Source of the DNA: Blastocystis sp. Blastoise
Lineage: Eukaryota > Protista > Bigyra: Opalinata
Assembly (NCBI GenBank): GCA_039096225.1
Contig: JBBPEB010000013.1
Location: 868,001 to 932,000, forward strand
Reading direction: 5' to 3'
Length of the DNA: 64,000 nt
Position 1 is the stretch's first letter; every line of letters begins with the position of its first letter. Shown in pieces: positions 1-44,435 of the stretch. The notes beneath the pieces were generated by a model. The model did no database searches. It was not told the DNA's origin and was given only the letters and a program-made list of their open reading frames with translations. The position numbers and the translations under genes are program-made.

Positions 1-759
1 CGTAAAATCAAAATTAGTCCAATGAAATCGTTATGTGAATTGATTTTATTTATTATACGTAATGTTTCTTCATTAAATAAAGAAGGTATTTTAAATAAAT
101 GGTGTGAATTTTATGTGATTATCAATTCAATGTATGAAAAATATCTGGATAATAAGAAACGTACTTTAATTCAAGATCTTATTAAAGATGGTATTACGAC
201 TCCATATTTACATGAATATCACGATAAATTAGAAAATTATAATCCATTACGATTAATATTAGATTTTTACTCCTATCTTCCTCCTGCTCGTGCTGATTAT
301 GCTCAATTATTCATTCTATCACCAGAAGATACTATTGATCCAACTATTCATAAGAATTATATTGTTTATGATAAAGAGAAACACACTGGTTCTATTCTAT
401 TAAATGATTATAAAACTGCTGGTAAATACTCTACAATTCAATTAGATGCACCAAAAGAATTGATTGAAGATCTAGAATTACTCTTAAAAAGAAATCCAAA
501 TCGTAAATTTATATTTGAATCTTCTGTAAGAACTGGATTTACTACTAAAGCATTTGATTGGTTTGTGAATAAGCATTTAAAACAAATCCATCCAAAATTA
601 ACCATTAATGCATTAAGAAAATTATATGCTACAACTACAACCAATACATTCCAAGATATAGAAAATTCTGCTTCTGCTTTATGTCATAATGATTATACAC
701 ATATTAATTCTTATGTATCTTTAGAAAATAATAATTTATTTAAAAAATTAATTGAATAA
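1..759 (+). CDS. Tyrosine recombinase 1, PLV/virophage type (5' truncated by window edge)
   Basis: Motifs LPPARADY (R), DYKTAGKY (K), NALRKLYAT (R), LCHNDYTHINSY (H...Y); full-length version in copy B. Confidence 0.85.
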   Translation, partial: RKIKISPMKSLCELILFIIRNVSSLNKEGILNKWCEFYVIINSMYEKYLDNKKRTLIQDLIKDGITTPYLHEYHDKLENYNPLRLILDFYSYLPPARADYAQLFILSPEDTIDPTIHKNYIVYDKEKHTGSILLNDYKTAGKYSTIQLDAPKELIEDLELLLKRNPNRKFIFESSVRTGFTTKAFDWFVNKHLKQIHPKLTINALRKLYATTTTNTFQDIENSASALCHNDYTHINSYVSLENNNLFKKLIE

Positions 760-832
760 TTTTATGTTTTCATGTTTGTTTTGCTTTAATTTTGAATATA
801 ACTAAACAACTAGTAATAAAAGGATATAAAAA

Positions 833-1207
833 TTAATTAAAAGGTAAGAAAGATAGATTATTATTATTATTTTGATATTGATTTTGTTGTTGATTACTTT
901 TCATAGTTGGCATAAACATATTATTGGGTTGAATAAGATTCTTATCATCTTGATATTGATTCTCATTCTTCATATATTGTTTATCCAATAGCATTTCAAG
1001 ACGTTGATGAATCACAGGATCATCTATATAAAGTAGCATATTTCTACAATAACTCAATTGCAAATCACTAAGATTTTTGTTGTTATTGTTATTTAAAAAT
1101 TGTTCTAATAGATTTGCTATTTCATTCTTTTTGGACTTAATTCCTTCTTCTTTTAGATTCTTCATCACACGACAAAAATAAGAATAACTAAGATATTTCT
1201 TGTTCAT
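833..1207 (-). CDS. Hypothetical viral protein, 124 aa
   Basis: ORF conserved in copy B with many synonymous changes; HSE array upstream. Confidence 0.75.
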   Translation of the reverse strand: MNKKYLSYSYFCRVMKNLKEEGIKSKKNEIANLLEQFLNNNNNKNLSDLQLSYCRNMLLYIDDPVIHQRLEMLLDKQYMKNENQYQDDKNLIQPNNMFMPTMKSNQQQNQYQNNNNNLSFLPFN

Positions 1208-1302
1208 TATTTAAATTAACCAATGATTAAACAAAACAAATTAATTATATAAAACACTAATATAATAAATTAAAGATTCTACAAATAGAGCCAGTTCAAA
1301 AT

Positions 1303-1325
1303 GAATGTTCTAGAATGTTCTAGAA
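1303..1325. promoter_or_regulatory. Heat shock element-like array (5 nGAAn units)
   Basis: GAA tg TTC ta GAA tg TTC ta GAA, ~100 bp upstream of the 124-aa gene. Confidence 0.7.
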
Positions 1326-1465
1326 CGTTTCTTGGACATATAAAAGTAAAGTAAAATATATATAATAATAAGAACAATTTCAATAACTGACAATATTTCA
1401 TTTACATTCTCTAAAGTTTCTGCACTACGATCTAAGTAGTAATTGCCAAATCGTTTCTTTGTCAT
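1310..1465 (-). CDS. Small single-pass membrane protein, 51 aa (MTKKRFGNYY...)
   Basis: ATG at 1465; hydrophobic stretch IVLIIIYILLYFY followed by basic tail; protein identical in copy B despite nucleotide changes. Confidence 0.6.
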   Translation of the reverse strand: MTKKRFGNYYLDRSAETLENVNEILSVIEIVLIIIYILLYFYMSKKRSRTF

Positions 1466-1529
1466 TATAGTATTAAATAATAAACAAAACAAATTAATTA
1501 TATAAAATATTAATATAATAAATTAAAGA

Positions 1530-1547
1530 TTCTAGAATATTCTAGAA
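1530..1547. promoter_or_regulatory. Heat shock element-like array (4 units)
   Basis: TTC ta GAA ta TTC ta GAA upstream of the 51-aa gene. Confidence 0.6.
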
Positions 1548-1551
1548 TGTT

Positions 1552-2139
1552 TTAACAAGGCATAAGATTTCCATTAGAAAGTAAATAAAGTAAAGAATAA
1601 TAAAAGCAACCATTTGCATTACTTGTAGTTTTTTGGTGTTGAATAGGATTATATTGAATATTATGATTTTGAATAAATGATTTTGAAAAAGTAGGTTCAT
1701 TTCCTAATGATGAATAGTGTTCTATGTTTTTATTACCATTATAAATAACAGCTTCAAAATGACCATTATAAGGATCACTAGGACTTTCATGAAAGATCAT
1801 ATTAAATTTAGTTTGATCTTGATCTATATTTTGTTCAAAATCATCATAACTATTATAATAATTATAAGATTGAGAATTCGTTTTATTTAATTGTTTCATA
1901 ACATTTTCAGCACGATCACAAGCAACAGAAGAGGTAGGTTTATTTAAATAAGCATAATTATATAATTGAGATATTAAAGAATTGGGTATATTACAATATT
2001 GAGATAGAGTTTGTTTGAAATTATCAGGGGATCTAGGAGTAACATGACGAGTTTTATCAGATATAATAGGATTATCGCAATTCATTGAATTTTGAATTAA
2101 TTTCTCATCTTTACTCTTTACCAGATCCCCTCCCCTGAG
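1552..2139 (-). CDS. Adenain/Ulp1-like (clan CE) cysteine maturation protease, probably expressed as a -1 frameshift extension of the upstream ORF
   Basis: NGHFEAV (His), HYSSLG, IQHQ (oxyanion Gln), NGCFYYSLLYL (Cys) in the order typical of polinton/virophage proteases. Confidence 0.75.
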   Translation of the reverse strand, partial: LRGGDLVKSKDEKLIQNSMNCDNPIISDKTRHVTPRSPDNFKQTLSQYCNIPNSLISQLYNYAYLNKPTSSVACDRAENVMKQLNKTNSQSYNYYNSYDDFEQNIDQDQTKFNMIFHESPSDPYNGHFEAVIYNGNKNIEHYSSLGNEPTFSKSFIQNHNIQYNPIQHQKTTSNANGCFYYSLLYLLSNGNLMPC

Positions 2140-2145
2140 TTTTTT
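2026..2145 (-). other. Predicted -1 programmed ribosomal frameshift signal
   Basis: In-phase A AAA AAC at 2145-2139, 7-nt spacer, then AGGGGATCT (2131-2123) complementary to AGATCCCCT (2034-2026); conserved in copy B. Confidence 0.7.
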
Positions 2146-3746
2146 GATAACATATATTTCTTTTTTTTCCAAAACAATTCGTCACCTGTATTTAATGTTT
2201 CATTATTATCTATTTTCTGTTTTATAATTTGTAATTGTTTTAAATCAGCCTCTTGTATTTTACGTTTTTTTCGTGCCACTCCTGCAGGTATTATAAAATC
2301 TGTATAAAATGATACTAATGGATTCAAATCACCACCTCTTTTCTTTTTAGCTTCTTTTCCTCTTCTCATTCGTTCTAAGAATTCTGCTTTACTTAATTTA
2401 ACTCGACCACCATAACCTCTACGTTTAGCTCTTCTTGCAGCTATTCGTTTATCCCTTTCATCTTCTTTCCATTTTCTATCGACTTTCTCTTTATCATTTT
2501 GAGGGAAACCATAAATCTTATAAGGATAACTTTGTTCATCACGAGACATTGGTTTATAAGGTTGAGGAGGTTGAGATTGAGGATGTCTAGCAACTTGTTG
2601 TTGTGGAGGTGGTGGAGGTTGAACAACGGGTTGTGGATGTAGTCTATCATCTTCATCAAGAGCATCTTGCATTTCATCAGCTACATCATAATATCCTTCA
2701 AACATTTTATTTATTGTATTTCCTGAACCTATTTGTTTTTTCATTTCATTTAATGCTTGTTGACGTTTTAATTTTTCCATTTCAAATTCCATATCATTTA
2801 ATTCACTTGATTGTTGTGCCAAATGTGTATCATAATAAGCTTTTCTACCTTTAGCAAAAGAATCCATACCTTTATCAACTACACCTAATAGAGCTGGTGC
2901 ATAATCCATCAATCCGCTCCAGAATCCACCACCTCTTTTTACTCTTAATATACCATCACCACTTTGAGCTGAATCTAAATCTATATATTTTGGTATAATT
3001 GAAGGTCTTAACATTCTTCTTAATTTTGGATTATTAATTATTTTCTTATTTTTAATTGCATTCATAATTGCTGAAGCAACTGATATAGGAATCTTTCCAC
3101 CACGTTTAATTTTATGTTCATAGAATCTTTTGAATTCATCATCAAGATCATGATGACCGTCACCAACATATTGAGCTAAAATAGCTAATGCATCACGAGC
3201 TTTTCTATTAGCTTTTTTATCTACAATAGCATCTCTTATATCTAATACATTTCGTTGATACATATCTTTTACTTTATTTTTAATTGCATCACCAATACCA
3301 GAACCTTGATTATTCTCTAATTTATTGATTTCTGATTTATTTGGAATAATACCTCTACCAGATTTACGTCTTGGTTTACATGGATTTAATACCTTATATT
3401 GACGATCTTCACCATCTATTTTATCTTCTTCTGGACCAGCTGCTTTCATTACACCTTTACCTGCTGCTCTAGCACGAATTAAAGCACCATTTCCTTGTGG
3501 AACAGCATCTTTACCAAATGTTTTAGAACGATCTACATAATCATCTTCTTTACCATCATGTATTTCTTTACTTTCTAAAGTAGACACAGGCATAGATGAA
3601 TTTGGACCTATTTCATGAAATATTGGATTATATTGATCCATTTTATGTAATGGTTGTGTATTATATCGCCTATATTCTTTTCCAGTTGAAATTAAATTCA
3701 TACCAAAAGTACCAGGACTTGGCATTCCTAATATACAACTTTGCAT
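2118..3746 (-). CDS. Basic, Gly-motif-rich putative virion core precursor protein, 542 aa
   Basis: K/R-rich, with repeated xRGG/GxG motifs (IKRGGK, VKRGGG, GYGGR, KKRGGD) resembling adenain cleavage sites; adjacent to the protease. Confidence 0.6.
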   Translation of the reverse strand: MQSCILGMPSPGTFGMNLISTGKEYRRYNTQPLHKMDQYNPIFHEIGPNSSMPVSTLESKEIHDGKEDDYVDRSKTFGKDAVPQGNGALIRARAAGKGVMKAAGPEEDKIDGEDRQYKVLNPCKPRRKSGRGIIPNKSEINKLENNQGSGIGDAIKNKVKDMYQRNVLDIRDAIVDKKANRKARDALAILAQYVGDGHHDLDDEFKRFYEHKIKRGGKIPISVASAIMNAIKNKKIINNPKLRRMLRPSIIPKYIDLDSAQSGDGILRVKRGGGFWSGLMDYAPALLGVVDKGMDSFAKGRKAYYDTHLAQQSSELNDMEFEMEKLKRQQALNEMKKQIGSGNTINKMFEGYYDVADEMQDALDEDDRLHPQPVVQPPPPPQQQVARHPQSQPPQPYKPMSRDEQSYPYKIYGFPQNDKEKVDRKWKEDERDKRIAARRAKRRGYGGRVKLSKAEFLERMRRGKEAKKKRGGDLNPLVSFYTDFIIPAGVARKKRKIQEADLKQLQIIKQKIDNNETLNTGDELFWKKKKYMLSKNSGEGIW

Positions 3747-3821
3747 TTTTTTATTTCAATTATAAAATTATTTATAAACAAAACAAATATATTAATAAAA
3801 AATAAATTTAACATTAAAAAT

Positions 3822-4415
3822 TTATAAATTAGTTAAATCAATAATAGTATCATTACTATTAGTATTCTTCGTAGATTTATCGATGACTTTAATAGAACGA
3901 GCATATAAACCAATATAATACTTGTTATTATAACGATGAATACCATGTATTGTAAATAATACTTTACATAACGTATTTGGTGGAATATACTTTTCACGTA
4001 TTTCTTCGTAAGTTAACTTAGGATCTTTACCGATATTAATCTTCTTATCTCTTTTATCAGTAATATCAATAGTAACATTCTTCGATGCATTAATAGGTAC
4101 TTTAATTGTAATCTTATATTTACCATTATCCATACGTACAAAATTAACAATATCACCATCAGGACATAATTCACATAATTTACGATAAAGTTCTTTATAA
4201 GCAGTTAAGAATACTTGATTATCATCTTCAATTGTTAATAAAGTCCATTTATCACGTGTAACAATATAACCAAATAAACATGGTGTAGCATCAGTAGAAA
4301 TACATACACGATGATTATTATTTAAAAGAACAGCATTTTCTTTGGTGTCATCCCATTGTAAATTAAAGTTAGAAGTATCAAGAATAGTAGGTTTTTTAAA
4401 TTCAGTTGTAGACAT
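3822..4415 (-). CDS. Putative ssDNA-binding (OB-fold-like) protein, 197 aa
   Basis: C-terminal beta pattern VLFTIHGIHRYNNKYYIGLYARSIKV resembles viral T7 gp2.5-like SSBs; function is inference, ORF conserved in copy B. Confidence 0.45.
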   Translation of the reverse strand: MSTTEFKKPTILDTSNFNLQWDDTKENAVLLNNNHRVCISTDATPCLFGYIVTRDKWTLLTIEDDNQVFLTAYKELYRKLCELCPDGDIVNFVRMDNGKYKITIKVPINASKNVTIDITDKRDKKINIGKDPKLTYEEIREKYIPPNTLCKVLFTIHGIHRYNNKYYIGLYARSIKVIDKSTKNTNSNDTIIDLTNL

Positions 4416-4492
4416 TTTTAGTTAAGTATTTAGTAAAAATATAAGTATTTTAATACTAATATTTTACGATATTCTTTTCAAATGAATCAATT

Positions 4493-4540
4493 TTCGAGAA
4501 GGTTCTAGAAGGTTCTAGAAGGTTCGAGAAGGTTCTAGAA
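4493..4540. promoter_or_regulatory. Heat shock element-like array (10 perfect units)
   Basis: TTC ga GAA gg TTC ta GAA gg TTC ta GAA gg TTC ga GAA gg TTC ta GAA, 78 bp upstream of the 197-aa gene. Confidence 0.8.
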
Positions 4541-4733
4541 AAAAAGAACACTTGAATAATCTAATGGAAACATTTTAACGGAATCGAACCATGATACTGT
4601 GGTTACATATTTCTTTAATAGATCCATTAGACCATTCAAGAATTCTATTTGAAACTATTCTATTCTCAATTTAAACTTTGTGTAATTAATTTAAAAAATA
4701 AACAAAACAAAATAATTAATTAAATAAAAATAA

Positions 4734-5261
4734 TTAATGATCAAATATTTCAGACATAGAAGGAATAGAATATTCGGATAATAATGAAACAATTTCTTTA
4801 GAATCATCATGAATCTGTTTCAAATCTTGTTTCTGACTTTCAATCTTTGTTTTTAAATGATCAACAGTACAATAAATACCATTTAATATATTATCAGCTG
4901 TTTCAATAGTTTGAAATAAAGATTCGAATTGACTGGATATATTTGTTAACTCCTCATTTGTAAATAATAATGCTTGCTTATCAGGATTTGTATTTACTTG
5001 ATCTTGAAATTGTATTGGTTGATTGTTAACGGAATGATATCTATCTGGATTTTTAGATACGTAAACATCATTGATTGGATGAATTTCTTGAGGTGGATCT
5101 TCAAACATGATTTCGTCACGCGAATTAAAACAGAAATCATTATCATTGGGTAAAGCCATAGGATTTGCAGAAACACTATTTTCAAATGGATTCAACAAGG
5201 GGGATATCATGGCTTGACCGAAAGGGGATAAACTGGCGGAAAGATTATCAGGAATTTCCAT
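4734..5261 (-). CDS. Hypothetical viral protein, 175 aa (acidic N-terminus, coiled-coil C-terminus)
   Basis: ORF conserved in copy B. Confidence 0.7.
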   Translation of the reverse strand: MEIPDNLSASLSPFGQAMISPLLNPFENSVSANPMALPNDNDFCFNSRDEIMFEDPPQEIHPINDVYVSKNPDRYHSVNNQPIQFQDQVNTNPDKQALLFTNEELTNISSQFESLFQTIETADNILNGIYCTVDHLKTKIESQKQDLKQIHDDSKEIVSLLSEYSIPSMSEIFDH

Positions 5262-5377
5262 GATTATTTAAACCTTCAAAAGTATTTTTATACAATATAT
5301 TAAATATACTATTTTTAGTGTACAGTTCTTCATTTCAGTTGCTAACAAAAGCCTATTGCTTCCAGCTGGAAAATAAG

Positions 5378-5548
5378 CCAATAAAATAGCTTATTTCGTA
5401 TGACAAGTCGTCGTCATCGTCTAATTGTGTTTTACTAATTTTTTTATCCAATCAGATTACAGATGCCGACTATACTCGTCATCGAAACACAAATAAAAAA
5501 TGCTAAGTCGACAAAATTAGCCAATCAAATGAACCTTCTAGAACATTC
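5378..5548. promoter_or_regulatory. Divergent promoter with three CCAAT boxes and a 4-unit HSE
   Basis: CCAAT at 5378, 5448 and 5521; GAA cc TTC ta GAA ca TTC at 5531-5548; all retained in copy B. Confidence 0.55.
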
Positions 5549-5659
5549 CATAGAGATTCTACACTGTCTCCTAGAATATTTAATATTCCATTTAAATGTA
5601 TTATTTATTTCATTTTGATAAATACAAATTTTCTCTCTGTAACGATATTCGCGATTATA

Positions 5660-6283
5660 ATGCAATTTAATCTTTCTGCTGATTCCCGTAAATGTCTTCA
5701 AACTGTTCGTATGGAACTTCTAAAGAATTCTAAGAAGGCTGTTGAAGTTCATAAGAATGTTCTTCGTGATATTGATTTACATCAGTCTCAATTGAATAGA
5801 GAAAAGAATCTATTGGGTATTGCAAAATCTAAAGAACGTCTTGCTTCTTTCGAAGTCGAAAACTATAGATCAGCTTTAAAACGTATAAACGCGGTTATTA
5901 AAGGTCTTGAAGATTATGAAGAATTCGCTGCTGATATTTATACTCAACAACTTAATGAAGAACAAGATATTCAAGATATTATCAATACTGAAGATCTTTT
6001 AGAAAGTGATAGAACTACTATTTTATGTTCTGAAGATTCTAAAGAACATTCGAATTCTCAAGATGATGATTTTGATATTATGAAATTCCATATGGAAGAT
6101 GGATTCCTCTATGATGAAAAAGGTAAAGTTTATTCTTATGAAGTTGTTCATGCTAAGAGTATTAACAAGATTAAAAGAGATCCTTCAAAACAAATGTATT
6201 TCTGGGATGGTATTTTATATGATAAGAATGGATGGCCTCATTCATGTACATATATTAATAGTCAAGAACCAATTGAAATTTAA
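5660..6283 (+). CDS. Hypothetical viral protein, 207 aa from ATG 5660
   Basis: Coiled-coil N-terminus and duplicated C-terminal motif DGFLYDEKG / DGILYDKNG; conserved in copy B. Confidence 0.7.
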   Translation: MQFNLSADSRKCLQTVRMELLKNSKKAVEVHKNVLRDIDLHQSQLNREKNLLGIAKSKERLASFEVENYRSALKRINAVIKGLEDYEEFAADIYTQQLNEEQDIQDIINTEDLLESDRTTILCSEDSKEHSNSQDDDFDIMKFHMEDGFLYDEKGKVYSYEVVHAKSINKIKRDPSKQMYFWDGILYDKNGWPHSCTYINSQEPIEI

Positions 6284-6393
6284 TTATTTTTCTTGTTTAT
6301 TTTTCTATTTTTACTTATAAACTTGTAAAAAATCATTGAAAATTGTTTTGTTTATTGTATATACATTTAAAACACTAAAGTATAAAAAGGATG

Positions 6394-6523
6394 TTCTAGA
6401 AGGTTCTAGAAGGTTCTAGAATGTTCTCGAAGGTTCTAGAACATTTAAAAATATAAAGTAATATTTACTATTATAGAATGTTCTAGAAGGTTCTAGAAGG
6501 TTCTTGAATGTTCTAGAAGCTTC
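6394..6523. promoter_or_regulatory. Two heat shock element-like arrays (10 units each: 6394-6441, 6476-6523)
   Basis: Perfect alternating TTC/GAA triplets with variable 2-nt spacers directly upstream of the primase-helicase ATG at 6610. Confidence 0.8.
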
Positions 6524-6609
6524 CAAAACTGACTTCTAGAATCTTTAATATATTATTTGTTTTAAATGTTGTATTATAATTATTTTCATTATTTATAAGT
6601 CAAATAATC

Positions 6610-9600
6610 ATGGAAAATTCACAAATTCATTTTGTTTATACTTTTGGTTCCTTTAATCATGATAATTCAAAAGATAATCATAGTGAAATTATTATACCAA
6701 ATCCATTACCATTTTATAAAAGTCTATTTACTAATTATCAAAATCCAAAAGAATTATTACATTATATTGATTGTACTCCTTGTAATACATCAACTAATTA
6801 TAGAAGATTATGGTTTGATTTAGATTATCACCAAATATCTGATGATTTTTCTTTTCTAACAGATTCTTTTATTCATGAATTTATTGAAGAAATATGTAAT
6901 CATTGTATTCATTATTATAATCAAGAATTTATTTCGCTTGTGTATACAAAGAAAGAAGTGAATAAGAAGACAGTTCATAATGAAATACATTATTCATGGG
7001 GAATTCATATATATACGAATTGGTTTGTAAATGGTGATTATTTATTTTTCTTATATAATAGTATGATTCTGAATACCAAATTGGTTGATTTATGTAAAAC
7101 ATATAATTTAGATATAAAAGAATTCATTGATTATAATGTTATTGGTAAACCCAGAAAGAATAATGGTTGTATGTTTCTTGGTTGTAGTAAAGATAATTCT
7201 CCATCTACTTATAAATTATATGAAGAATATACCAATAAAACATGGAAGAAAATAGATGATGAAATCGATGAACATTATTATTTCAAAACATTATTGAATT
7301 ATAAGAATGAAGATGATCTTATAAGTGATATTATTAATCCTATTATCTTTTCTAAATTAAAACAATATTCACGTTATAAACGTTATTATGCAAGATTAAA
7401 TAATTGTTCACGTACTATATTATGTTCTATACAAGATATTAAAGATATTCCTATGTTGATTTCTACAGATACTATATTGGATACTACAGCATCTAAAGAA
7501 GCTTTATTGGAACGATATTTATTATTGATTGGTTCTATTGAAGATATGAATTATTTTGAATCTCATAATACTTGGTATAAATTATGTTGTGCAGCAAAAC
7601 AGATTTGTAATACAACAAGAGGATTAGAATTATTTAAAAATTATTCATTACGTTATGGTCATGATCGAAGTGATGATGTAATTGAATCTACATGGAATCA
7701 TATACAAGTTGATCCTACTCATTTATCGAATAATTATATTTTGAAGATATTAATGGAGAATAAATTATTTAATAAAGATGATGATAATGATTTCATATTT
7801 ATGTCTATTTTAGAATGTATTCAATCCTTTAATCTTGTAGATTCACAAACATTAGTTATGTTATTTCAATTATTAGAATTTAATGAAATTGTTTCTATTA
7901 TATTAGATAAAGATAATTTTATCTTATATACATTTGATGAATATAATATCTTAAGACGTTGTAAGAATAATTATGATATTAATTTCTTTGAAACCAAAAT
8001 AACTACATTTATGAAATCGATTGTAGAGAAATTCAAATTATCAAGATTATATTCCAAAGAGAATGAACAACATCAAAAAATAGTTGATAAAATAATGTCT
8101 GCTTCTGTTACTAATGAATATCATTATAAAGAATGGTTGAATCGTTATTTGAAGACTTATGGTAAATCTTATAAAGAATATTTAGATACGTATATGGTTC
8201 ATAAAGAACGTGTTATCTATACACAACTTGGTTATTTATATCCAAAAGAATCTACAGAAGAAGATCCTAGACAATATTATATCCAACCATATCATAAAGA
8301 AGATATGGTGTTTGAAGATTTATTAATTGATACTGAATTTAATGTAAGTTGGAATATTAATAATGAACAGAAAGATATTATCCAATTATTTGAACAACAT
8401 ATTGCAAGATATTGTGAATTCGATAAGAAATATGAAAGTATTATGTTACGTATCTTAACCACTGCTTTCTATGTCAATACTCAGAAAACTGTTTCTTATA
8501 TATTATATGGTAGTACAGGTAGTAATGGTAAAACAATAACAACTGATTTAATTTCTCGTATTGTAGGTAGTAATCAATGTATTATAGTAAATCCAGATAA
8601 TTTAGAAGAAACATCTATAGCTCCTAAGATTGTAGATATGTCTAATAAAACAATGTATTATATGAATGAATTAATAGAAGAAGATGTTACTGGTAGAAAG
8701 AAAACATTTAATCCATTCTCTTCTAAAGTCTTTAAAGAAATAGCAGAAAAGAAAGAAGGTGCTAGTGCTCGTAAATTATTCAGTAATATATTTACAAAAG
8801 TTCATTTCACGGGTACTTTATTTATGACAAGTAATATCCAACCTACTGCTGTGAATGCTGGTCCTATTGAAAGAAGAGTCTGTTTCTTACCATCATGTTG
8901 TCGTTATTTCCCTCCTGGTAATGCTAATTTATATGAAGATTATGTAGATCATAATTTACCTAAACGTAAACAGACAGTAGAAAAGAGATTGAAACCAAAT
9001 CATTATGAAATGGATTATACTCTATCTGATAAATTCTATCAGAATCGTTCAATTATCTTTAGTTATCTAGTAAGTAATTATTTCTATTCTAGTATGCAAT
9101 TAGATATGCATGAATTAGATAATGAATATCATATAAGTGAATGTAAGAAACGATTCTTTGATCGTAGTACAGAAGGATATGATTTGAAATCTTTTGTTGA
9201 TAACCATATTACTATAGATCCTTATTATTTGAATGTAGTTACTATTGAAGATATTTTTAATAGTTATAAGAAAGTGAATAATAATAATCAATTTACGATT
9301 AAGAAAGATTTAGATAAATTTACAAATGCTTTATTTGGTTGTTTAAGTAGTAAAGATACATTTAATTCTATAGATATTGTGAATATTCATAGAAAACATA
9401 CTTCAAATTTTTATAAGGGAGGGAATGCTATTGGTATTTGTGGTTTAATGATTGATAATACTTATAATGAATGTGTGGATACAGATTTATTCTGTTTATC
9501 CAATTGTTTATCTAAGAAAGAAGAAATTGTTTATAGTGAAGATCAATATCATAATACGTCATCAACAAAACGAATTTTAATAGATAATACTTTATATGCT

Positions 9601-9612
9601 ATACCAAATTAA
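6610..9612 (+). CDS. AEP primase / PriCT-2 / SF3 (D5-like) helicase fusion, 1000 aa
   Basis: RLWFDLD and GIHIY (AEP motifs); HNTWYKLCCAAK (PriCT-2-like); Walker A GSTGSNGKT, Walker B MYYMNE, motif C LFMTSN, Arg finger IERR. Confidence 0.9.
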   Translation: MENSQIHFVYTFGSFNHDNSKDNHSEIIIPNPLPFYKSLFTNYQNPKELLHYIDCTPCNTSTNYRRLWFDLDYHQISDDFSFLTDSFIHEFIEEICNHCIHYYNQEFISLVYTKKEVNKKTVHNEIHYSWGIHIYTNWFVNGDYLFFLYNSMILNTKLVDLCKTYNLDIKEFIDYNVIGKPRKNNGCMFLGCSKDNSPSTYKLYEEYTNKTWKKIDDEIDEHYYFKTLLNYKNEDDLISDIINPIIFSKLKQYSRYKRYYARLNNCSRTILCSIQDIKDIPMLISTDTILDTTASKEALLERYLLLIGSIEDMNYFESHNTWYKLCCAAKQICNTTRGLELFKNYSLRYGHDRSDDVIESTWNHIQVDPTHLSNNYILKILMENKLFNKDDDNDFIFMSILECIQSFNLVDSQTLVMLFQLLEFNEIVSIILDKDNFILYTFDEYNILRRCKNNYDINFFETKITTFMKSIVEKFKLSRLYSKENEQHQKIVDKIMSASVTNEYHYKEWLNRYLKTYGKSYKEYLDTYMVHKERVIYTQLGYLYPKESTEEDPRQYYIQPYHKEDMVFEDLLIDTEFNVSWNINNEQKDIIQLFEQHIARYCEFDKKYESIMLRILTTAFYVNTQKTVSYILYGSTGSNGKTITTDLISRIVGSNQCIIVNPDNLEETSIAPKIVDMSNKTMYYMNELIEEDVTGRKKTFNPFSSKVFKEIAEKKEGASARKLFSNIFTKVHFTGTLFMTSNIQPTAVNAGPIERRVCFLPSCCRYFPPGNANLYEDYVDHNLPKRKQTVEKRLKPNHYEMDYTLSDKFYQNRSIIFSYLVSNYFYSSMQLDMHELDNEYHISECKKRFFDRSTEGYDLKSFVDNHITIDPYYLNVVTIEDIFNSYKKVNNNNQFTIKKDLDKFTNALFGCLSSKDTFNSIDIVNIHRKHTSNFYKGGNAIGICGLMIDNTYNECVDTDLFCLSNCLSKKEEIVYSEDQYHNTSSTKRILIDNTLYAIPN

Positions 9613-9656
9613 ATATATATTTATTTTTTATTATAAAAAGTTGTTTTGTTTTAAAA

Positions 9657-11453
9657 TTAATAAAATTTAAATTGAATTCCATGAAAATGCTTTTTAGGGA
9701 CTTTGACTTTAAAGAATGCATTACTTTTATGTTTTTTCAATAAACCATGACCACGATGAATAGGTTCTAAAGGAGGCATAGTAGAAAGACTACGTAATGC
9801 ATAAGTATCTGAATTATTCATAACTATAGGTGTAGAGTTTTCATCTTGGGTATTCTGTTGCATAAGAGATGCTTGAGTATTCGTTAATTCTGAATCTGTT
9901 GTATTATTATGTAAATGATCAGGTAATAATTGTTTATTACGTATAAAACGATTATAACGATCTCTAGAATTCTCTGGAACTTCTTCAGGTTCTAATGAAC
10001 ATCCTACAGGTAATTCATTTTCTAAATCTGTTTTATCTGGATAATGATGCTTTAATAGATCTTTATAATATCTTAATGTAATCATTATAGTATCATTATC
10101 TGATGAATATTGTTCTAATGTAGATAATATCGATTCTGATTTCATATTGAAATTCTCTTTACCAAATACATCTTCATAATCTTCATCATATTGTTCTATA
10201 CGATCATTAAATCGTTTACATAAAAATAATAATTTATTCAATTGATTAATTTCTCTTGTATAAGTAATATTATTCATATCAATATGAAATGTTCTTGTTT
10301 TATTATCTAAATCTTGCAATTTAGTTGAATGAGAAGATAAATAAGGAGATATATAATTTTCCATATGTGTTGATTGACTATGTAACATCTTCATAATAGA
10401 GTTTTCAAAGAGTTCTACACCTTTAGATTCATGTTCTGAATCATCATGTTGGAATTGTGCTTCTCTTGATAATCTATAATAATATTGAGCAAATAAATGT
10501 CTTATAATATCACAACCATTAATTAAAGAATTATTCTGTTGTGTTTTATAAATCCATCCTAAATGAGGTTTTATATATTCATCACCAAATTTCAAATCAC
10601 GTACTTTACCACCATTCTCAGTAACAAATAAATAATGTCTTGGAAATAAACGTAAGGATCTAGCTAAGACATTTAGATATTCTTCTGATAAATACTGATA
10701 AGTAGGATATTCATTCTTACCAATTTCAAATCGATTCTTTGTATCATTCACATGAATAGTCAAAGTATTTAAATCAATATAATTGGTTGTTCTTCTTAAC
10801 GATAAAGGAATTTGTTGACCACGAGTATAGATTACACAATCATTATAATCATTACGAGCACATAATGTATCATAAGTTAAAACTAATAAATAACTATTCA
10901 CATAATATAAATCATTAGGATTTTCTAAATAATTCTTTTTGGTGATATTAATGATTTCTCCCCAATCAGCTTCACAATTAATAATTTTCTGAGTGATTTC
11001 ATAATGTCTTGAATAAGTAGCATCTATTTGTAAAGAACCCCATAAATGTTCCCATTTCTTTATATTTTGTGGAGTAAATGCTTTATAATTAATGATATCT
11101 TCATCATCTGTACAAATAGATATATTCTTCATTATATAAGTAATCATTTGCATATAATTAGCTACAGTAGTATTGGATAATCCACCTTGTTGTCCAGGAG
11201 CTTCTGTTTGTGTATGTTGCATAACATTTTGAAATTGAAATGGATCTGTTAACACTTCTACACAAAAGAATGGTTCTTCCATATCATCTATTTGAATTCG
11301 TTCTTCATTACGAAATTTCTTACATATTGTCTTTATCCATTTCTTCCAATTTATACTTGTTGATAATTGTATTTTCTTCCAATGTAATAATTGATCTATA
11401 CAATTTGTAAAGAATTCTTCACAATCTTTATCTGAATAACCTGTTGATTGCAT
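9657..11453 (-). CDS. Tyrosine recombinase 2, 598 aa
   Basis: LCARNDY (R), DTKN (K), DIIRHLFA (R), MLHSQSTHMENY (H...Y), same motif order as recombinase 1. Confidence 0.75.
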   Translation of the reverse strand: MQSTGYSDKDCEEFFTNCIDQLLHWKKIQLSTSINWKKWIKTICKKFRNEERIQIDDMEEPFFCVEVLTDPFQFQNVMQHTQTEAPGQQGGLSNTTVANYMQMITYIMKNISICTDDEDIINYKAFTPQNIKKWEHLWGSLQIDATYSRHYEITQKIINCEADWGEIINITKKNYLENPNDLYYVNSYLLVLTYDTLCARNDYNDCVIYTRGQQIPLSLRRTTNYIDLNTLTIHVNDTKNRFEIGKNEYPTYQYLSEEYLNVLARSLRLFPRHYLFVTENGGKVRDLKFGDEYIKPHLGWIYKTQQNNSLINGCDIIRHLFAQYYYRLSREAQFQHDDSEHESKGVELFENSIMKMLHSQSTHMENYISPYLSSHSTKLQDLDNKTRTFHIDMNNITYTREINQLNKLLFLCKRFNDRIEQYDEDYEDVFGKENFNMKSESILSTLEQYSSDNDTIMITLRYYKDLLKHHYPDKTDLENELPVGCSLEPEEVPENSRDRYNRFIRNKQLLPDHLHNNTTDSELTNTQASLMQQNTQDENSTPIVMNNSDTYALRSLSTMPPLEPIHRGHGLLKKHKSNAFFKVKVPKKHFHGIQFKFY

Positions 11454-14522: not shown

Positions 14523-15995
14523 ATGAGAATCTTAAGAATTAAAGATAATATTCCTATTCAAAGCAATACTGATATTCTATCAAGTCCTTATATCTTTCAA
14601 TATCATTGGACTAATGTGGATAACACTTATATCAATTTCAATCAATCCTATTTGGATCTTACTGTCAAAGCAACTGTCACAGATAAAGCTGGACCAGTTT
14701 CTGTTTATTTAGATGAAACAGGTACTTCTGTTAGTTTCACCTATGATCAATTATGTCAATATTTCTTGGATCAATTAGTTCAAAAAGCAAATATTTATTC
14801 TATTATTGATTCCACTGATGTTGAAATGGTTTATACTTTACCTGATGGATCCGATCGTGCTTTGAAATATGAAGAAAACTGTACACATGCTTCACGTGGT
14901 CGTAAAATGATTTTATTAAAAGATATCAGTAAGAATGATTTAGAAAAATCTATGTATGGTGAAGATTTATCTGCAGATACTTATGAATTGAATTCTATTC
15001 GTTATATACGTGCACATCCAAATGAATCTATTCATATTGCTATTCCTTTATATCTCATTAGTGGTTTAGGTGTTGATGGAGATTCTTTAATATTAACTAA
15101 ACATTTCAATATGCTATTTAGAACGAGTACAATTGAATCCTTAATTGATAATAATATGAGTATTTATTTCAAGAATGGTGGTGCTAAATTATCAACACAA
15201 TGGTTACATCTAACTGATGAAAAATGGTTTAAGACATTTGAATTGGAATCAGCTACTATGAATTTAATGACTTATAAAGATATTCAATTCCAAACGAATG
15301 AATTATATAAAACTATACCTACATGTATTCAAGTCGATTATCAAAATACAAGAATAACTAGTGATCATTTCAATATCAATAGAGCTTTACCATTTATACC
15401 TGAATATATATTATACTGGTTTACAAATGGTTATAGTTCAACAACTATTAGTAATGTAGCTAGTCCATCTGTATGGCCTAAATATCAAAGTTGTTTGATT
15501 GGTGATGTTCAAATGTTCCCTCAAACTGAATTCCCTACTCAAATGTATTATCATAATCTTACTACTAAAGGTCATGTCTTCAATAATGAAGAAACTGCTA
15601 GTTTATCTTGTCCTAATAAAAATCTATATTGTTTATGGGCTGATAATTCAAATCCTGAAACTATTCTTAAATATGATGAATGGATTAAACATCCTATTTA
15701 TATTATTCCAACTAAAGCATTAATGAATATCCAATCAGATAGTGGTATAGAAATGAATTTTGATTGTAATCTAGATGTCCATGATATTGAATATGGTCAT
15801 GCTGATTCATCTACTGTTCCTGATGGATATACATGTACATATAATGAAACTACTAAAATATGGACACCTGACACTGGTGCTTCTTATGCCGTTGCTTCTC
15901 ATGCTGGTATTTATAAACATATTAATACTGAACTAAATGAGAAGCATCCTTATACCTTACATATGATTGCTGTACGTAGTGTACGTGATATTTAA
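14523..15995 (+). CDS. Major capsid protein paralog 1 (putative double jelly-roll), 490 aa
   Basis: YINFNQSYLDLTV N-terminal motif, beta-rich, homologous to the next ORF, located in the virion gene cluster. Confidence 0.65.
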   Translation: MRILRIKDNIPIQSNTDILSSPYIFQYHWTNVDNTYINFNQSYLDLTVKATVTDKAGPVSVYLDETGTSVSFTYDQLCQYFLDQLVQKANIYSIIDSTDVEMVYTLPDGSDRALKYEENCTHASRGRKMILLKDISKNDLEKSMYGEDLSADTYELNSIRYIRAHPNESIHIAIPLYLISGLGVDGDSLILTKHFNMLFRTSTIESLIDNNMSIYFKNGGAKLSTQWLHLTDEKWFKTFELESATMNLMTYKDIQFQTNELYKTIPTCIQVDYQNTRITSDHFNINRALPFIPEYILYWFTNGYSSTTISNVASPSVWPKYQSCLIGDVQMFPQTEFPTQMYYHNLTTKGHVFNNEETASLSCPNKNLYCLWADNSNPETILKYDEWIKHPIYIIPTKALMNIQSDSGIEMNFDCNLDVHDIEYGHADSSTVPDGYTCTYNETTKIWTPDTGASYAVASHAGIYKHINTELNEKHPYTLHMIAVRSVRDI

Positions 15996-16165
15996 ATTTA
16001 ATATTTCTTACTTACTATTCTTAACGTTAACTTGTTTAATTAATTCTATTCTATTCTATATTCCAATCATTTGTTTTGTTATGAATTTCAAATAATTTTA
16101 TAATTATAAAATATCATTATTATTTTATTTTTTATTTAAAAAATACATAAACAATAATTATTAAC

Positions 16166-17389
16166 ATGGAAGGATTCCCAAGACAATTCTTACCTTCAAA
16201 GGCAAATCAAACTATTAAACCTGTACAAATTCCTATTCTAGTTTCTACTAGTCAAGATTTATTAAATCAACCTTATCCATTTGAATTCTTATATAATTCA
16301 GTTGATAGTCCTTTTATTGATTTCAGTAATTCATTCTTAGAACTGAATTTCAATATTACAACAAATGCAGCTACAACTAGTTCTGTTGTACAACATTCTA
16401 ATATCTATAGTATTATTGATAAAATTACTACAGATCTTACGTTTGTATCTCCTACGGGTCAAGATATTCTTATTAATTATTCTGAATCTTCTATTGAATC
16501 CAGTAAAGCAAGAAAATTTGTTACTATTAAAGAATTAAGTAAAGATGAAATTGATAAATCTATGTATAGTATGACAGAATGCTTATATAATACAACCTTA
16601 AGCAGTATTTCTGGAATGCAAAGTTCTACTAAAGCTCAAGTTATTATTCCTTTATCTCTTATTACTGGTCTTGGTACATTTGATTGTGCTATTAAAGTAA
16701 AATCTTTGAAGATGCAATTCGTTACAAATTATTTAAAGAATCTATTTACAGGTACGACTAAAATCACTGCATTAACTTTTGATCGTGTTTATATTCATCT
16801 TCAACAAATTTATGATATTAATTTTGGTAATGATCCACGTGCTTTAATTAAATGTATTCCTAATAATTGTCAAATATCTGCATTTACTACACCTGTTTAT
16901 TCAGAAACATTCACAACAGCAGGTAAACCAACTCCACAACAATTCTTATCCAATAGAAGTGTTGTTTTCGTACCTGATTACTGTATGCTATATTTTACAA
17001 CTCAAGAGAAGAGTATGATCCCTATTAAGACTGAATTATTGAAGATGTGTCAATTCCAAATTGGTGGTCAAAATATCTTACCTAAGACGGATTTCCCTAC
17101 TACGTATAAAACAACGAATCCATCACAAATTATTCCTAATGCTATGCTTTATAATACTTGGAGATGTAATAGTCATCCTCAATCTCCTTTAAACGGTGAA
17201 AAGTGGTATGAACAACCTATTTATATATTCCCTATTTCAAGTGTTGTTGATGTCAATACTCGTAGTGGTTGTGAAGTTAATATCTCCTTATTAACTGAAT
17301 ATAATGGTGCAAATATTACTAGTGGTACTTATACTTTATATGCTCATTTTATATTTGTTAAATTTGTTAGAGATGGTGCAACCAATTAA
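16166..17389 (+). CDS. Major capsid protein paralog 2 (putative double jelly-roll), 407 aa
   Basis: FIDFSNSFLELNF, NIYSIID, IPLSLITGLG, PIYIFP shared with the 490-aa ORF. Confidence 0.7.
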   Translation: MEGFPRQFLPSKANQTIKPVQIPILVSTSQDLLNQPYPFEFLYNSVDSPFIDFSNSFLELNFNITTNAATTSSVVQHSNIYSIIDKITTDLTFVSPTGQDILINYSESSIESSKARKFVTIKELSKDEIDKSMYSMTECLYNTTLSSISGMQSSTKAQVIIPLSLITGLGTFDCAIKVKSLKMQFVTNYLKNLFTGTTKITALTFDRVYIHLQQIYDINFGNDPRALIKCIPNNCQISAFTTPVYSETFTTAGKPTPQQFLSNRSVVFVPDYCMLYFTTQEKSMIPIKTELLKMCQFQIGGQNILPKTDFPTTYKTTNPSQIIPNAMLYNTWRCNSHPQSPLNGEKWYEQPIYIFPISSVVDVNTRSGCEVNISLLTEYNGANITSGTYTLYAHFIFVKFVRDGATN

Positions 17390-18220: not shown

Positions 18221-18536
18221 ATGGTGAATAAAATAAATCCATTAAAAGAAACACGTAAAGGATGTGGAGTCTTAGAATTTAAATATGGAAAATCACATCA
18301 TAAAACATATGAATCAAAATTTATATTGATTATTGCAAGAACATTCTCAGGTAAATCTTTCTTAACTGTGAATCTCTTATGTTCTATGGATCTTAAAAAT
18401 AAATATAAACAAGTCACAGTAATTTGTCCTGATGCATCCAATAAGAATGAATGTTATACATCCTTTCAAGATATTTGTGAACATGCTGGAATTGATTATA
18501 AATGGTATGATTCTGTAGATGATAAATTTAAAAAGA
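18221..18536 (+). pseudogene. A32/FtsK-like genome packaging ATPase, 5' part (interrupted by Helitron 1)
   Basis: Walker A IIARTFSGKS; joins in frame to 32116-32843 when the Helitron is removed (347 aa). Confidence 0.9.
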
Positions 18537-18574
18537 CAAGCGTTTCACGGCCTGCCTACGCAGGCCTACGCTTG
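18537..18574 (-). terminator. Helitron 3' terminal hairpin
   Basis: GGCCTGC-ctac-GCAGGCC (18549-18566) nested inside CAAGCGT...ACGCTTG (18537-18574). Confidence 0.85.
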
Positions 18575-18769
18575 AGTTTTATTTTAAAATATCTATTTTT
18601 AGTTTTTGGTTTTTAAGTTTTAACAAAACAATAGAATATTCTATATTTAACTTTTAAGACAACAAATAAAAATTGAAAAGAGAAAAATAATAAATAAAAA
18701 CAAATATATTAACAGACAATAACAAATATAAAAGAAATCAAAAAACAAATAAAACAAATAAAACAATAA

Positions 18770-21700
18770 CTAATTTAAAACTCCATCAAAAATGCAATTA
18801 GTCGTAAATACCTTATTAGGATAGTCTTTACTAAGATGTCCTTGATTATTGTTATTACAATTTTCAGCATAAATATGTAAACCATTAAAAGAACGAACTC
18901 TACTAAAAGCAACATATAATTGACCATGACTAAATACAGGTCTCTTTAAATATAATCCAACATTTTTAAATGTTTGACCTTGTGATTTATTAATAGTCAT
19001 AGCAAAAGCTAATCGAACAGGAAATTGTTTTCTTCTCATCTTAGTAGGAAGTGAATCATCTGAAGTAATTAAACTGATTCTTGGAATAAATACAATATCT
19101 TCACCAGGTAATAAATTATCTGGCTTATTTAATAATTGAGCACGAATAACATTATTTAATGTTTCAAGAACAACTAATCTTGTTCCATTACATAAACCCT
19201 TCTTTATATTAAGATTTCTCAATAACATAATAATACAGCCTTTTCTTAATCTTAATTTATGAGGAGGAAATCCTTGAGGAAGAAGAGTATTAAGAAATTC
19301 AGGAGAATAAGCAGCTCTTTCAGAATCATTAACTATTTCATCTTCTAAAGTATCAAAACTATAATATATTTTTTCTGATTCTGAAGAAGGTATTAAATCT
19401 AATACTTTCTCATTTATATCAAAAGTATCTTCATTCGTACAACATAAAATACAATTCTCAGATAAATCTTTTCTATGTTGTTCTGATAAAATATTTCTAT
19501 TATGAAGTATATTCTCCCATATCTCTTTATATAAATTTTCTGTACTTATACATTGTGAAGGTATTTCTACAATATTATCATTCAAATCAGATTCATTATT
19601 TAATCGTTCACCATTTCCTACTTTCATTAACCATTCTTTAAAATCTAAAGCATCTCTATCTGCTCTCATATTCTGAACTAAATGACATTGTATAAAATTA
19701 TTCCAATATTTAAATCTTTTCAAACATACACCAACAGTAGATGATTCATTTCCATTTTTAACTACTGGTAAACATTGTCTAAAATCTCCACCTAAAACAA
19801 TAGTTTTACCAACAAAAGGATATTGAAGACATGGATCTTCAGAATCTATTGAACTAAATAAATCATGTAATAAATTATCAAGAACTTCTAAAGCATAAAT
19901 AGAAGCCATAGGTGCTTCATCCCAAATAATAATAGCACATTTTCTTAAATCATTTGCTTTTGCACTACTTCTTGTTATATGTGAAATAGACATTTCATTT
20001 AGATCAAGTGGTAATCCAAATACAGAATGAGAAGTACTTCCTCCTGATAATAAAGTAGCTGCTATTCCTGTGAATGCAACAGCTAATACAGGTTTTTCTC
20101 TTGTACGAATCATCTTGATCAAAGTATTATATAAGAATGTTTTTCCAGTTCCACCAGGACCATCAATAAAGAACATATTATTATTATGAGGTTGAGTATT
20201 ATTAACAGATACCATAATTCTATCAAATATTTCTTTTTGTTCTCTATTTAACATTTGATAATTTCTTTCTGCTTCTCTATGTGCAACATCAAAATCATAA
20301 AATTCTAATGTAGAAACACCACTATTAGGATTAAAATGTGAAGTATATTGAATAGTAGGCATATTAGTATATTTACCTCCATTTGATTCTATTAATGTTT
20401 TGATATTATATAAAGCTCTTGGATAACAATAATTGATTACAATAGGATCTTGATCAATAATATCAGGATCAGTTGAAAGAGAATGATTAATACGTTCATT
20501 TATAGTAAAATGATCTATTGTATATTGATAATATATATCAGAAATCATTTCATATTTAAATTCATTCCATAAATCCATTGCTTTATCAGTAATATTATAA
20601 TATACAAATAATAAAGCAAATACTAATCGTAATTGAGAAGGATGACAATCATGCATTACTTCATCTAATATATGTCTATATTCATTAGTATCATCTAATA
20701 ATCCTCTTGCTATACATACTCCTTCATAAGTTGGATAAGGTAATTCTCCATCATACATTCTTAATGATTCAAAACTTGTTGGTCTATTTACATGAGTTAA
20801 TAATAATTTTAAACAAAATGCTTCTTTATTAGTTGGATTTATATAAGGTATTCTTCCAAGTGTCTTCGAATTCTTTTGTCTTGGTTTCCATATATGTTCT
20901 CCTTTACACCATGTATAATATTGAGGAAACATATCATATGTCATAAACTCTGGTTCTTCTAAAGTAGGAACATATAAATGATTATTTAAATCATCATTTG
21001 CTTTGAAATATGCTTCTAACATAGATAATTTATTTCCTTGTATTTCTTCTGCTTGTTCTTCTGAACCATCTGTATATACTATATTCTTATCATTCTCATC
21101 ATGAATCAATAATATTTGAACAGCTATATTTGATTGTACTATAGGAAATCCTAATATTCTCCAAACTGCTTCAGTTGATGATATATATCTTGCATCTAAA
21201 TATTGTTTAACTTCATTATTATTTGTTTCATTTGAAGAAGCTGATAATTCAGCTCTCATTGAATCATGACCTTTTGTTGTATATTTATATAGATATTTTA
21301 CTGTATGTAAACTATAAACTGCTTCAACATTAATATGTGCTTCTAATTTGAGTGATAAATATGGATTATATGGAACAACATATTCATTAGTAGCTTCTAA
21401 ATCACCATTAGTACGATGAAATACTACTTTTCTTCCATCATTTGGTCTAAAATATAAAGGATAAGAATCATTAGGAATTGTAGTACATTCTTGAAATGGT
21501 TTAGGAAATCCTTTCTTACATATTCCATGAGAATCTAAACATGGAGAATTAGATACATGAGGACCATGTATATTCATTGTACTTACTATTTTAAATAATC
21601 TAGGATTCTTTTCTTCATCAGGAAGATAAGCACATATAATAGAATCAAGTTCATTAGTATCATGTATTTTATCTTGTTGTTCAACATTCAATAAGATATG

Positions 21701-26600: not shown

Positions 26601-26960
26601 TTTATATCTATTATTATAACTTTTATCATGAATACCTATAAATGTATAAAGAAAAAAGAAATAATATATTCATTAGTATTAATATAATATAAATATAAAT
26701 GTTTCATGATGATTATTTTTATTTGAATATACTAATAATTGTACATATTTTGATAAATAAAAATATAATAATAATATAGAAAAATTGTAATAATACTATT
26801 TAAGAAATAAAGAATAATTATTACAAAATAATTATCACATAAACATAAATATATAATAATAGTAGAAATAAATAAAAATGTATACGTTGAGATGAATTTA
26901 ATATTTGAGAAGAAACCATATTCGTATTACTTTTTTGTATATCTAAAATGAATTGTTTTT

Positions 26961-27009
<49 letters not shown>

Positions 27010-28120: not shown

Positions 28121-28197
<77 letters not shown>

Positions 28198-34808: not shown

Positions 34809-35049
34809 TGATACTACAAGCGTTTCACGGCCTGCCTACGCAGGCCTACGCTTGAGTTTTATTTTAAAATATCTATTTTTAGTTTTTGGTTTTTAAGTTT
34901 TAACAAAACAATAGAATATTCTATATTTAACTTTTAAGACAACAAATAAAAATTGAAAAGAGAAAAATAATAAATAAAAACAAATATATTAACAGACAAT
35001 AACAAATATAAAAGAAATCAAAAAACAAATAAAACAAATAAAACAATAA

Positions 35050-43240: not shown

Positions 43241-43289
<49 letters not shown>

Positions 43290-44358: not shown

Positions 44359-44435
<77 letters not shown>

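Follow-up and report, generated by a model that had tools for sequence, protein, structure and literature searches.

Protist genomes hold thousands of integrated Polinton-like viruses (PLVs), and the question of what wakes such viruses is raised by a 64,000-nucleotide stretch of Blastocystis sp. Blastoise DNA (hereafter the window), in which two copies of such a virus are integrated. In the parts of the literature surveyed, the one trigger demonstrated for an integrated relative is a giant virus. Here the PLV DNA itself names a candidate trigger: several of its genes are preceded by perfect arrays of contiguous inverted nGAAn units, which are what eukaryotic heat shock factor (HSF) binds.

Endogenous PLVs are units of 15-30 kb in protist genomes, often with TIRs. 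The viral unit here, of approximately 22 kb, encodes several of the features by which PLVs are recognised, namely a double jelly-roll capsid protein together with a replication gene (primase-helicase) and a tyrosine recombinase (YR) integrase. Among named relatives, the closest occur in multiple copies in Blastocystis sp. Blastoise, and near-identical viral proteins were detected on Mb-size Blastocystis contigs. The model of the 407-aa double jelly-roll major capsid protein (16166-17389, + strand; pLDDT 74) matched Sputnik (E 5e-11) and PBCV-1 (E 3e-10) in Foldseek; no Pfam match was found for the protein, and relatives at 57-61% were found in ENA and Logan only, on contigs of up to 27 kb. A second capsid-protein paralog of 490 aa (14523-15995, + strand) shows 28% identity to it (E 5e-38). 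The 1000-aa primase-helicase (6610-9612, + strand) matched PHROG 1156 DNA primase over residues 574-749 (E 2e-9) and had 0 matches among PDB sequences. In tyrosine recombinase 1 (311 aa; 49283-50218, + strand, with copy A at 1-759 and the 5′ part of that copy outside the window), R156, K197 and R265 are invariant and H288 and Y296 near-invariant over 40 homologs, 11 of which match PF00589, and the profile matches integrase 3nkh. Tyrosine recombinase 2 (598 aa; 9657-11453, − strand) aligned to the recombinase 1 profile with 95.5% probability (hhalign, E 1.4e-8). The first-pass annotation had described an endogenous virus with two recombinases, and both the capsid fold and the two recombinases were confirmed.

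Among the other genes, a putative packaging ATPase (18221-32843, + strand) is split by a Helitron into pieces at 18221-18535 and 32126-32843, of which only the first gave P-loop matches, and these were weak. A 542-aa basic protein (2118-3746, − strand) had been given the putative label "core", and a 177-aa protein (1552-2085, − strand) has a His followed by a Gln..Cys motif, which we take to mark a possible maturation protease. A 223-aa minor capsid candidate had no significant match, and no repressor family was found among the viral genes, several of which are orphans. No related locus was recovered with the primase from viral contigs, with the capsid protein from viral, metagenome and genome collections, or with tblastn of 20 window proteins against 253 loci.

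Scanning the window for the motif, we identified 13 perfect nGAAn arrays of 4-10 units each, which include all those listed in the first-pass annotation and are the only perfect arrays of at least 3 units within the 64 kb. In 100 local shuffles of the window, 4-unit arrays arose by chance at a mean of 0.01, and the 4-unit pattern with at most one mismatch had 33 matches against 0.51 expected, every one of them at the 13 arrays. Seven arrays are distinct and six are their counterparts in the second viral copy, copy B (starting at 50755, 50982, 53961, 55001, 55864 and 55946, and spanning 50755-55983). As in a heat shock element (HSE), at least 3 nGAAn units alternate contiguously at all seven distinct sites, A is preferred as the first base (43/53 units), and the position is promoter-proximal. 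The preferred form, AGAAN, is given as the in vivo HSF unit in the available part of a study (PMC2936546) which also puts the strong HSE motifs occupied in vivo in Drosophila at less than 15%. For 7/7 distinct arrays the array end lies 64-168 bp before the ATG; this zone, which was picked after the data had been seen, makes up 9% of the viral unit. CCAAT and TATA-like boxes adjoin some of the arrays.

A role in replication or recombination is firm for only two array-target genes. These are recombinase 1, which in copy B has a 10-unit array (49147-49194) 88 bp before it, and the primase-helicase, whose ATG lies 168 and 86 bp after the ends of two 10-unit arrays (6394-6441 and 6476-6523). Another 10-unit array (4493-4540) lies 77 bp upstream of the gene for a putative SSB (197 aa; 3822-4415, − strand). 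This is a weak call: the look-alikes of the protein in the Atlas are NCLDV clusters, in which DUF5871 or DUF2738 (the latter presumably with an SSB role) occurs in 10-18% of the members, and they fall below the recognition threshold, the model has a pLDDT of 37 with no fold match, and a literature search on DUF2738 found nothing. A 5-unit array (1303-1325), which extends over the final codons of the 51-aa gene and has a TATA-like box about 50 bp downstream, lies 95 bp upstream of a 124-aa gene for which no family was found (833-1207, − strand; 14 synonymous and 1 nonsynonymous codon changes between copies). The 51-aa gene itself (1310-1465, − strand; one hydrophobic segment; 3 synonymous and 0 nonsynonymous changes) has a 4-unit array (1530-1547) 64 bp upstream, in a promoter that resembles the one at 1303 and is likely a duplicate of it.

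The last 4-unit array (5531-5548) is located, together with three CCAAT boxes, within a divergent promoter (5262-5659) common to two genes. It lies 111 bp upstream of the 207-aa gene (5660-6283, + strand), whose product has a Blastocystis sp. Blastoise hypothetical protein as its single match, and 269 bp from the 175-aa gene on the other strand (4734-5261, − strand), whose product has a coiled-coil-like C-terminus. The 175-aa protein was considered as a mimic of HSF-binding protein 1, an idea rejected for now since Pfam, with E allowed up to 5, lent it no support and the Atlas gave no match. A poly(A) loose end at 4730 was set aside, being on the wrong strand for this gene. Altogether, four or five array-target genes are without assigned function. 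The first-pass statement that arrays precede recombinase and replication genes only was therefore overstated, since no role is known for several targets (the 124-, 51- and 207-aa genes, and the 175-aa gene across the divergent promoter) and the SSB assignment is a weak one. Its complement, the absence of arrays before the capsid, ATPase, core and recombinase 2 genes, held: in 11/11 other viral genes, including these, the capsid paralog and the 177-aa gene, the 300 bp upstream contained no 3-unit site, even when one mismatch was allowed.

Since the arrays precede likely early genes and none is found before the capsid and other likely particle genes, host stress would likely switch the virus on. 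We lean towards the reading that the arrays are binding sites of host HSF which would co-switch the likely early viral genes under stress. Proteins with an HSF-type DNA-binding domain (IPR000232) are listed for 8/8 Blastocystis genomes of a published table, 2-3 in each (PMC10690189 supplement 7), so the objection that the host has no HSF fails. No host hsp promoter was found in the text and supplement of PMC6395660. A scan of metagenomes for arrays, intended as a positive control, failed as such because no chaperone gene lay beside the arrays: there was no adjacent hsp gene, 0 chaperone motifs occurred in 117 of about 190 loci (with full flanks for 80 of the 117 loci listed), and neither 73 scanned ORFs nor the additional ORFs from 16 selected metagenome loci included a chaperone family.

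In CRESS viruses, arrays were observed 36-134 bp before Rep in 10/13 loci, and the array-bearing loci belong to about six Rep lineages that are less than 50% identical to one another. The presence of arrays before Rep in several unrelated CRESS lineages fits convergence on a host factor.

Every sequence result in favour of HSF binding fits equally well with HSF sites that are strong early promoters and not a latency switch, at which HSF would be constantly bound, or activated by the infection itself or another virus co-infecting the cell, and the provirus would not be excised by heat. The CRESS viruses with arrays before Rep mostly have, to our knowledge, no latent state, which is in line with this. 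Likewise, 59 contigs of one of three sequencing runs (RNA by guess, from one study) map to 1-6200, and within this region they cover both array-bearing and array-free genes. In the available part of PMC12047821, HSF2 supports herpesvirus promoters via HSEs; however, the same source describes HSF1 as favouring long HSEs, and the perfect 10-unit arrays are of the long cooperative type tied to HSF1. Moreover, an element with many integrated copies, as in the named relative, would need off/on control. We regard promoters of this kind, without a role as latency switch, as unlikely, though to be taken seriously.

A considerably less probable reading has a viral protein binding the arrays, which would then be replication iterons, recombinase arm sites or operators of a viral regulator whose likeness to HSEs is convergent. 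The GAA/TTC pattern alone is undiagnostic because the same period is found inside phage replication-initiator genes: the pattern was present inside long ORFs in 49/68 viral loci, and 7/9 such ORFs tested are phage replication initiators. Lambdoid-type origins lie inside genes of this kind. Three or four orphan target genes could also encode the binder, but a search of these orphans gave no DNA-binding family. The arrays in phage initiators have the same period with different spacer bases, and A is the first base in 17/82 units of 13 phage arrays against 43/53 here, the units being non-independent and the window AT-rich. Rather than lying at one origin or unit end, the arrays here are distributed over six promoters in about 7 kb; they do not cluster as iterons or arm sites would, and the array of recombinase 1 is the only one close to the unit junction. 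The noncoding stretch from the last copy A gene to copy B recombinase 1 (48364-49146), a candidate end, att or origin region, carries its own, different short direct and inverted repeats, and an Rfam search of 48300-50300 gave 0 matches.

The arrays were also compared between the two copies, which are the only ones in the comparison and are 98% identical. In six array pairs, changes were found at 0/123 core and 5/70 spacer positions; the lack of core changes has a P of about 0.07 at the intergenic rate (24/1101), and 4/5 spacer changes are in one array. As had been annotated, all four changes between 4493-4540 and 53961-54008 are at spacer positions, and the array at 55946-55983 has exactly one 10-bp period fewer than its copy A counterpart. 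The core count is in line with the conservation of GAA/TTC proposed from these differences. It is very improbable that the arrays are neutral 10-bp minisatellites, propagated by slippage and conversion. The lost period could be cited for this, as could spacer changes in excess of the intergenic rate (P 0.02), which shuffling of units would produce; but all seven arrays are in promoter position before one gene class with none elsewhere in the 64 kb, and the spacers vary from unit to unit but the cores are constant.

Host HSF trimers would very probably bind the arrays cooperatively, with about 3 on each 10-unit array, and bring in RNA polymerase II. Given such binding, it would probably be stress-inducible, not constant, so that heat or proteotoxic stress would lead to a sharp rise in recombinase 1 and replication proteins. 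In the last step, which is the weakest, recombinase 1, the predicted excising enzyme, may excise or circularise the unit and the primase-helicase may amplify it, with the genes that lack arrays (capsid, ATPase and recombinase 2) following as late genes. More tentatively, the PLV might wake without a giant-virus helper, its early module being an HSF regulon through which stress leads to excision and virions, and, with the same wiring recurring before CRESS Rep, HSF might be a general eukaryotic counterpart of SOS.

If the virus is indeed woken by stress, its release from this common gut protist could be governed by the body temperature of an ectotherm host or by stress in the gut. Blastocystis is culturable and transiently transfectable, and its genetics lacks an inducible promoter (PMC6395660), for which the arrays are a candidate. 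HSE control had been thought undescribed for PLVs, and our literature searches found no description of it; the available portions of PMC10871703, PMC12859917 and 10.64898/2026.06.19.733378 make no HSE-PLV link. HSE-driven mobile elements as such are already known (ONSEN and herpesvirus promoters).

In lambdoid SOS induction, host stress leads to excision and replication through the destruction of one phage repressor. In the Blastocystis PLV, by comparison, the host activator is proposed to act directly on each early promoter, each early gene having its own activator site, and no repressor was identified; the analogy with an SOS-induced prophage is thus a loose one.

According to the parts available of the studies cited here and below, ONSEN (ATCOPIA78) of Arabidopsis is likewise an integrated mobile element with nTTCnnGAAn sites, at which binding of host HSF gives transcripts and extrachromosomal DNA under heat (PMC3907296). 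ONSEN is an LTR retrotransposon with a single LTR promoter, and its heat response has been proved by experiment, whereas the Blastocystis PLV, described here from its sequence, is a capsid-coding dsDNA virus with seven arrays, each before its own gene. The HSEs of KSHV ORF50 and of EBV BZLF1 and Qp (PMC12047821) similarly place host HSFs on promoters of a latent DNA virus, but they consist of 2-3 units and tune a single master switch, in contrast to the 4-10 perfect units across a likely early module in the PLV. DIRS-1 of Dictyostelium (PMC3950715) is also a protist tyrosine-recombinase element with heat-shock-induced transcription; it is, however, a retrotransposon, and its heat-induced RNA is a 900-nt antisense transcript.

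Regarding viruses of the same kind or host, endogenous PLVs (PMC10120064) likewise have a capsid, primase-helicase and YR integrase in approximately 22 kb. The Blastocystis PLV differs from them by two capsid paralogs, two recombinases and a capsid without a Pfam match, and in its available part that study gives no promoter or stress mechanism, the word "stress" occurring 0 times. Among the rows listed in supplement 2 of Bellas 2023, Blastocystis appears only in the genome list. MELD viruses were described from data of Blastocystis hominis, of the same host genus (PMC8502044), and have PolB and an adintovirus-like integrase, unlike the primase-helicase and tyrosine recombinases found here. Egovirus was considered as a helper and rejected, as the available part of a preprint reports no gene flux with Blastocystis. 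The Mavirus/EMALE provirophages of Cafeteria (PMC10945749) are, as here, double jelly-roll viruses integrated in multiple copies in a stramenopile, and their promoter motif, like the PLV arrays, points to the inducer. In EMALE04 this motif is the CroV late promoter and the provirus is woken by the giant virus, whereas the motif of the Blastocystis PLV, which has no known helper, points to a host stress factor.

Scanning the window for alternating GAA/TTC at 5-bp spacing, the shape of a heat shock element (HSE), we identified 13 perfect arrays of 4–10 units, all at the sites claimed by the first-pass annotation or at their second-copy counterparts, and the array feature is real. The distance from array end to ATG is 88 bp for recombinase 1 (array starting at 49147), 77 bp for the putative SSB gene (4493), 111 bp for the 207-aa gene (5531), 168 and 86 bp for the two arrays of the primase-helicase gene (6394 and 6476, respectively), and 95 and 64 bp for two small genes of 124 and 51 aa (arrays at 1303 and 1530). 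The 5531 array is shared with a 175-aa gene 269 bp away on the other strand, and three CCAAT boxes stand between the two. The first-pass annotation had noted that arrays are absent before the capsid, ATPase, core and recombinase 2 genes; 11 of 11 other viral genes have no three-unit site of fewer than two mismatches in the 300 bp upstream. Judging by their changes between copies (14 synonymous and 1 nonsynonymous for the 124-aa gene; 3 and 0 for the 51-aa gene), the small targets appear to be genuine genes. The claim that arrays precede only recombinase and replication genes holds for recombinase 1 and the primase-helicase, whereas the restriction is not established, since the small targets have no recognised function.

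The arrays belong to an integrated Polinton-like virus (PLV) in two copies, of which 1–11097 and 49460–60555 are 98% identical; copy A extends across the structural genes, and next to it, in head-to-tail order, lies copy B, which stops within recombinase 2, at 60555. The 407-aa protein is a double jelly-roll capsid protein (model pLDDT 74, matching Sputnik and PBCV-1 capsids) and the 490-aa protein is its paralog (both in 14523–17389), while the same single element has two tyrosine recombinases (9657–11453 and 49283–50218). Recombinase 1 matches an integrase structure and keeps its R-K-R-H-Y residues in 40 homologs, PF00589 being matched by 11/40 family members; recombinase 2 matches the recombinase 1 profile. 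Recombinase 1 alone has an array, and the two could possibly share labour, with excision early and integration late. The 1000-aa protein matches a primase PHROG. The 197-aa gene product is at most tentatively an SSB: its look-alikes in the Atlas come from NCLDV clusters, in which 10–18% of the members show DUF5871 or DUF2738, and a fold model gave no support. Of the two proteins encoded in 1552–3746, one of 177 aa carries His followed by Gln..Cys, resembling adenain-type proteases, and the other, basic and 542 aa long, contains many Gly-x-Gly sites; they may form a protease and substrate pair.

Two near-identical Helitrons (18536–32125 and 34816–48363; 9.3 kb at 100% identity and 4.3 kb at 99.8%, terminal hairpin present) are both inserted within the virus, one interrupting the putative ATPase gene and the other directly after the last gene, and without them the viral unit is about 22 kb. 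With the ATPase split and copy B truncated, both window copies may be defective. The head-to-tail junction (48364–49146), with no evident host DNA, carries the repeats GTAAAGTGATCAAGG and AAAATAATCACGGGA plus several inverted repeats, which could mark att or origin sites. Beyond copy B, in 60556–64000, come 30-bp repeats and AT-rich sequence, and 62938–63466 is a long (AGA)n tract.

The best capsid match (92%) is from Blastocystis sp. Blastoise, and the relative's genome of that name holds many further copies, with clusters of near-identical proteins on many Mb-size contigs (capsid 9, recombinase 2 21 and primase 19 members). About 80 further capsid relatives (55–63% identity) are metagenomic and presumably of gut type; in the alignment of P0007–P0076 from this set, the core is nearly invariant and several short segments occur in a few alternative versions in shuffled combinations, as if capsid loops were exchanged through recombination. 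Given the named relatives and the flank GC of 20%, near the 21–23% of tortoise Blastocystis isolates (PMC10690189), we infer a tortoise-clade host. The objection that the host might have no HSF fails: supplement 7 of that paper places the HSF DNA-binding domain IPR000232 in 2–3 proteins of each of 8/8 Blastocystis genomes, and it also lists hsp70, hsp90, small hsps and NF-Y.

The arrays are most probably bound by host HSF, which would make the early genes a distributed regulon. It is less sure that they form an inducible switch leading on to provirus excision and replication, and we favour this by a little over even chances. Clearly less likely is the main alternative, in which HSF binds the arrays without any latency switch; contigs from one sequencing run, guessed to be RNA, lie on both array-bearing and array-free genes in 1–6200, and are blind to strand, level and induction.

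Binding by a viral protein is improbable, though phages supply its precedent. Scanning IMG/VR for six units yielded 68 loci, none akin to this virus; in 49 the array falls within a long ORF, and 7 of 9 array-containing ORFs tested are phage replication initiators, so bacterial viruses, which have no HSF, make the same pattern. These period-10 TTC-nn-GAA arrays (L002:10001–10028, L006:3870–3902, L019:7017–7044, L048:5265–5292 and others alike) have G/C-rich spacers and are likely origin iterons. Units of the window arrays start with A in 43/53 cases vs 17/82 in phages (13 distinct arrays from 20 hand-picked loci; Fisher P 3e-12, overstated since units are not independent), and the in vivo HSF consensus, AGAAN, has the same first base (PMC2936546).

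Also on the opposing side, among the metagenome loci listed, an array next to an hsp gene, put forward as a positive control, was not found; many contigs are short, and spliced genes would escape. On the supporting side for HSF, retrotransposon domains lie near long arrays in at least six metagenome loci (L142, L148, L150, L153, L169 and L186). Likewise, a four-unit IMG/VR scan gave CRESS DNA viruses in 12/69 loci, to be read against their presumably small share of IMG/VR sequence, and a thirteenth (L064) came from the six-unit scan. In 10 of the 13, representing about six Rep lineages <50% identical, Rep follows 36–134 bp after the array end (L049:1484–1511 and 4545–4567, L064:998–1025, L080:1376, L090:917, L097:4978, L105:254, L111:315, L116:455, L132:3767 and L135:863; for L105 counted across the circular junction), with a TATA box in between in L049; in the other three the array lies before Cap or at the Rep end.

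Neutral repeats are a very remote prospect. In 100 local shuffles, arrays of three units came up 0.74 times per window and arrays of four units 0.01 times, and a dinucleotide-shuffle test agreed (33 matches vs 0.51 expected). Between copies, the 4493 array has four changes, in spacers only, and the 6476 array lost one 10-bp period, both as first described. Over six array pairs, differences fall at 0/123 core and 5/70 spacer positions (P 0.006 under uniform change). The evidence from this is modest: four changes fall in one array, where one round of shuffling may have produced them all, and zero core changes at the intergenic rate (24/1101) has P of about 0.07.

After the stop codon, TGTTTTGT is present on the sense strand in 15/18 viral genes (777, 1231, 1484, 3778, 4702, 6344, 9642, 11478, 11973, 16072, 17440, 18194, 32888, 33970 and 48401). 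It resembles TGTTTGTT, the polyadenylation motif of human-associated Blastocystis (PMC4159000). Since tortoise isolates reportedly show no enrichment of TGTTTGTT (PMC12129017), TGTTTTGT is not counted as proof of host processing; it could be a relic of an earlier host, or a 3′ signal specific to the virus.

In the open-licence literature, with bioRxiv supplements outside that scope, no report of HSEs in PLVs was found, in keeping with the first-pass annotation. Activation by HSF has been proven for ONSEN (PMC3907296), whereas the PLV arrays are known from sequence; herpesvirus promoters are a further described case of it (PMC12047821), and DIRS-1 is noted to have transcripts induced by heat (PMC3950715). 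For integrated virophages, the trigger shown is instead a giant virus, acting through its late promoter (PMC10945749).
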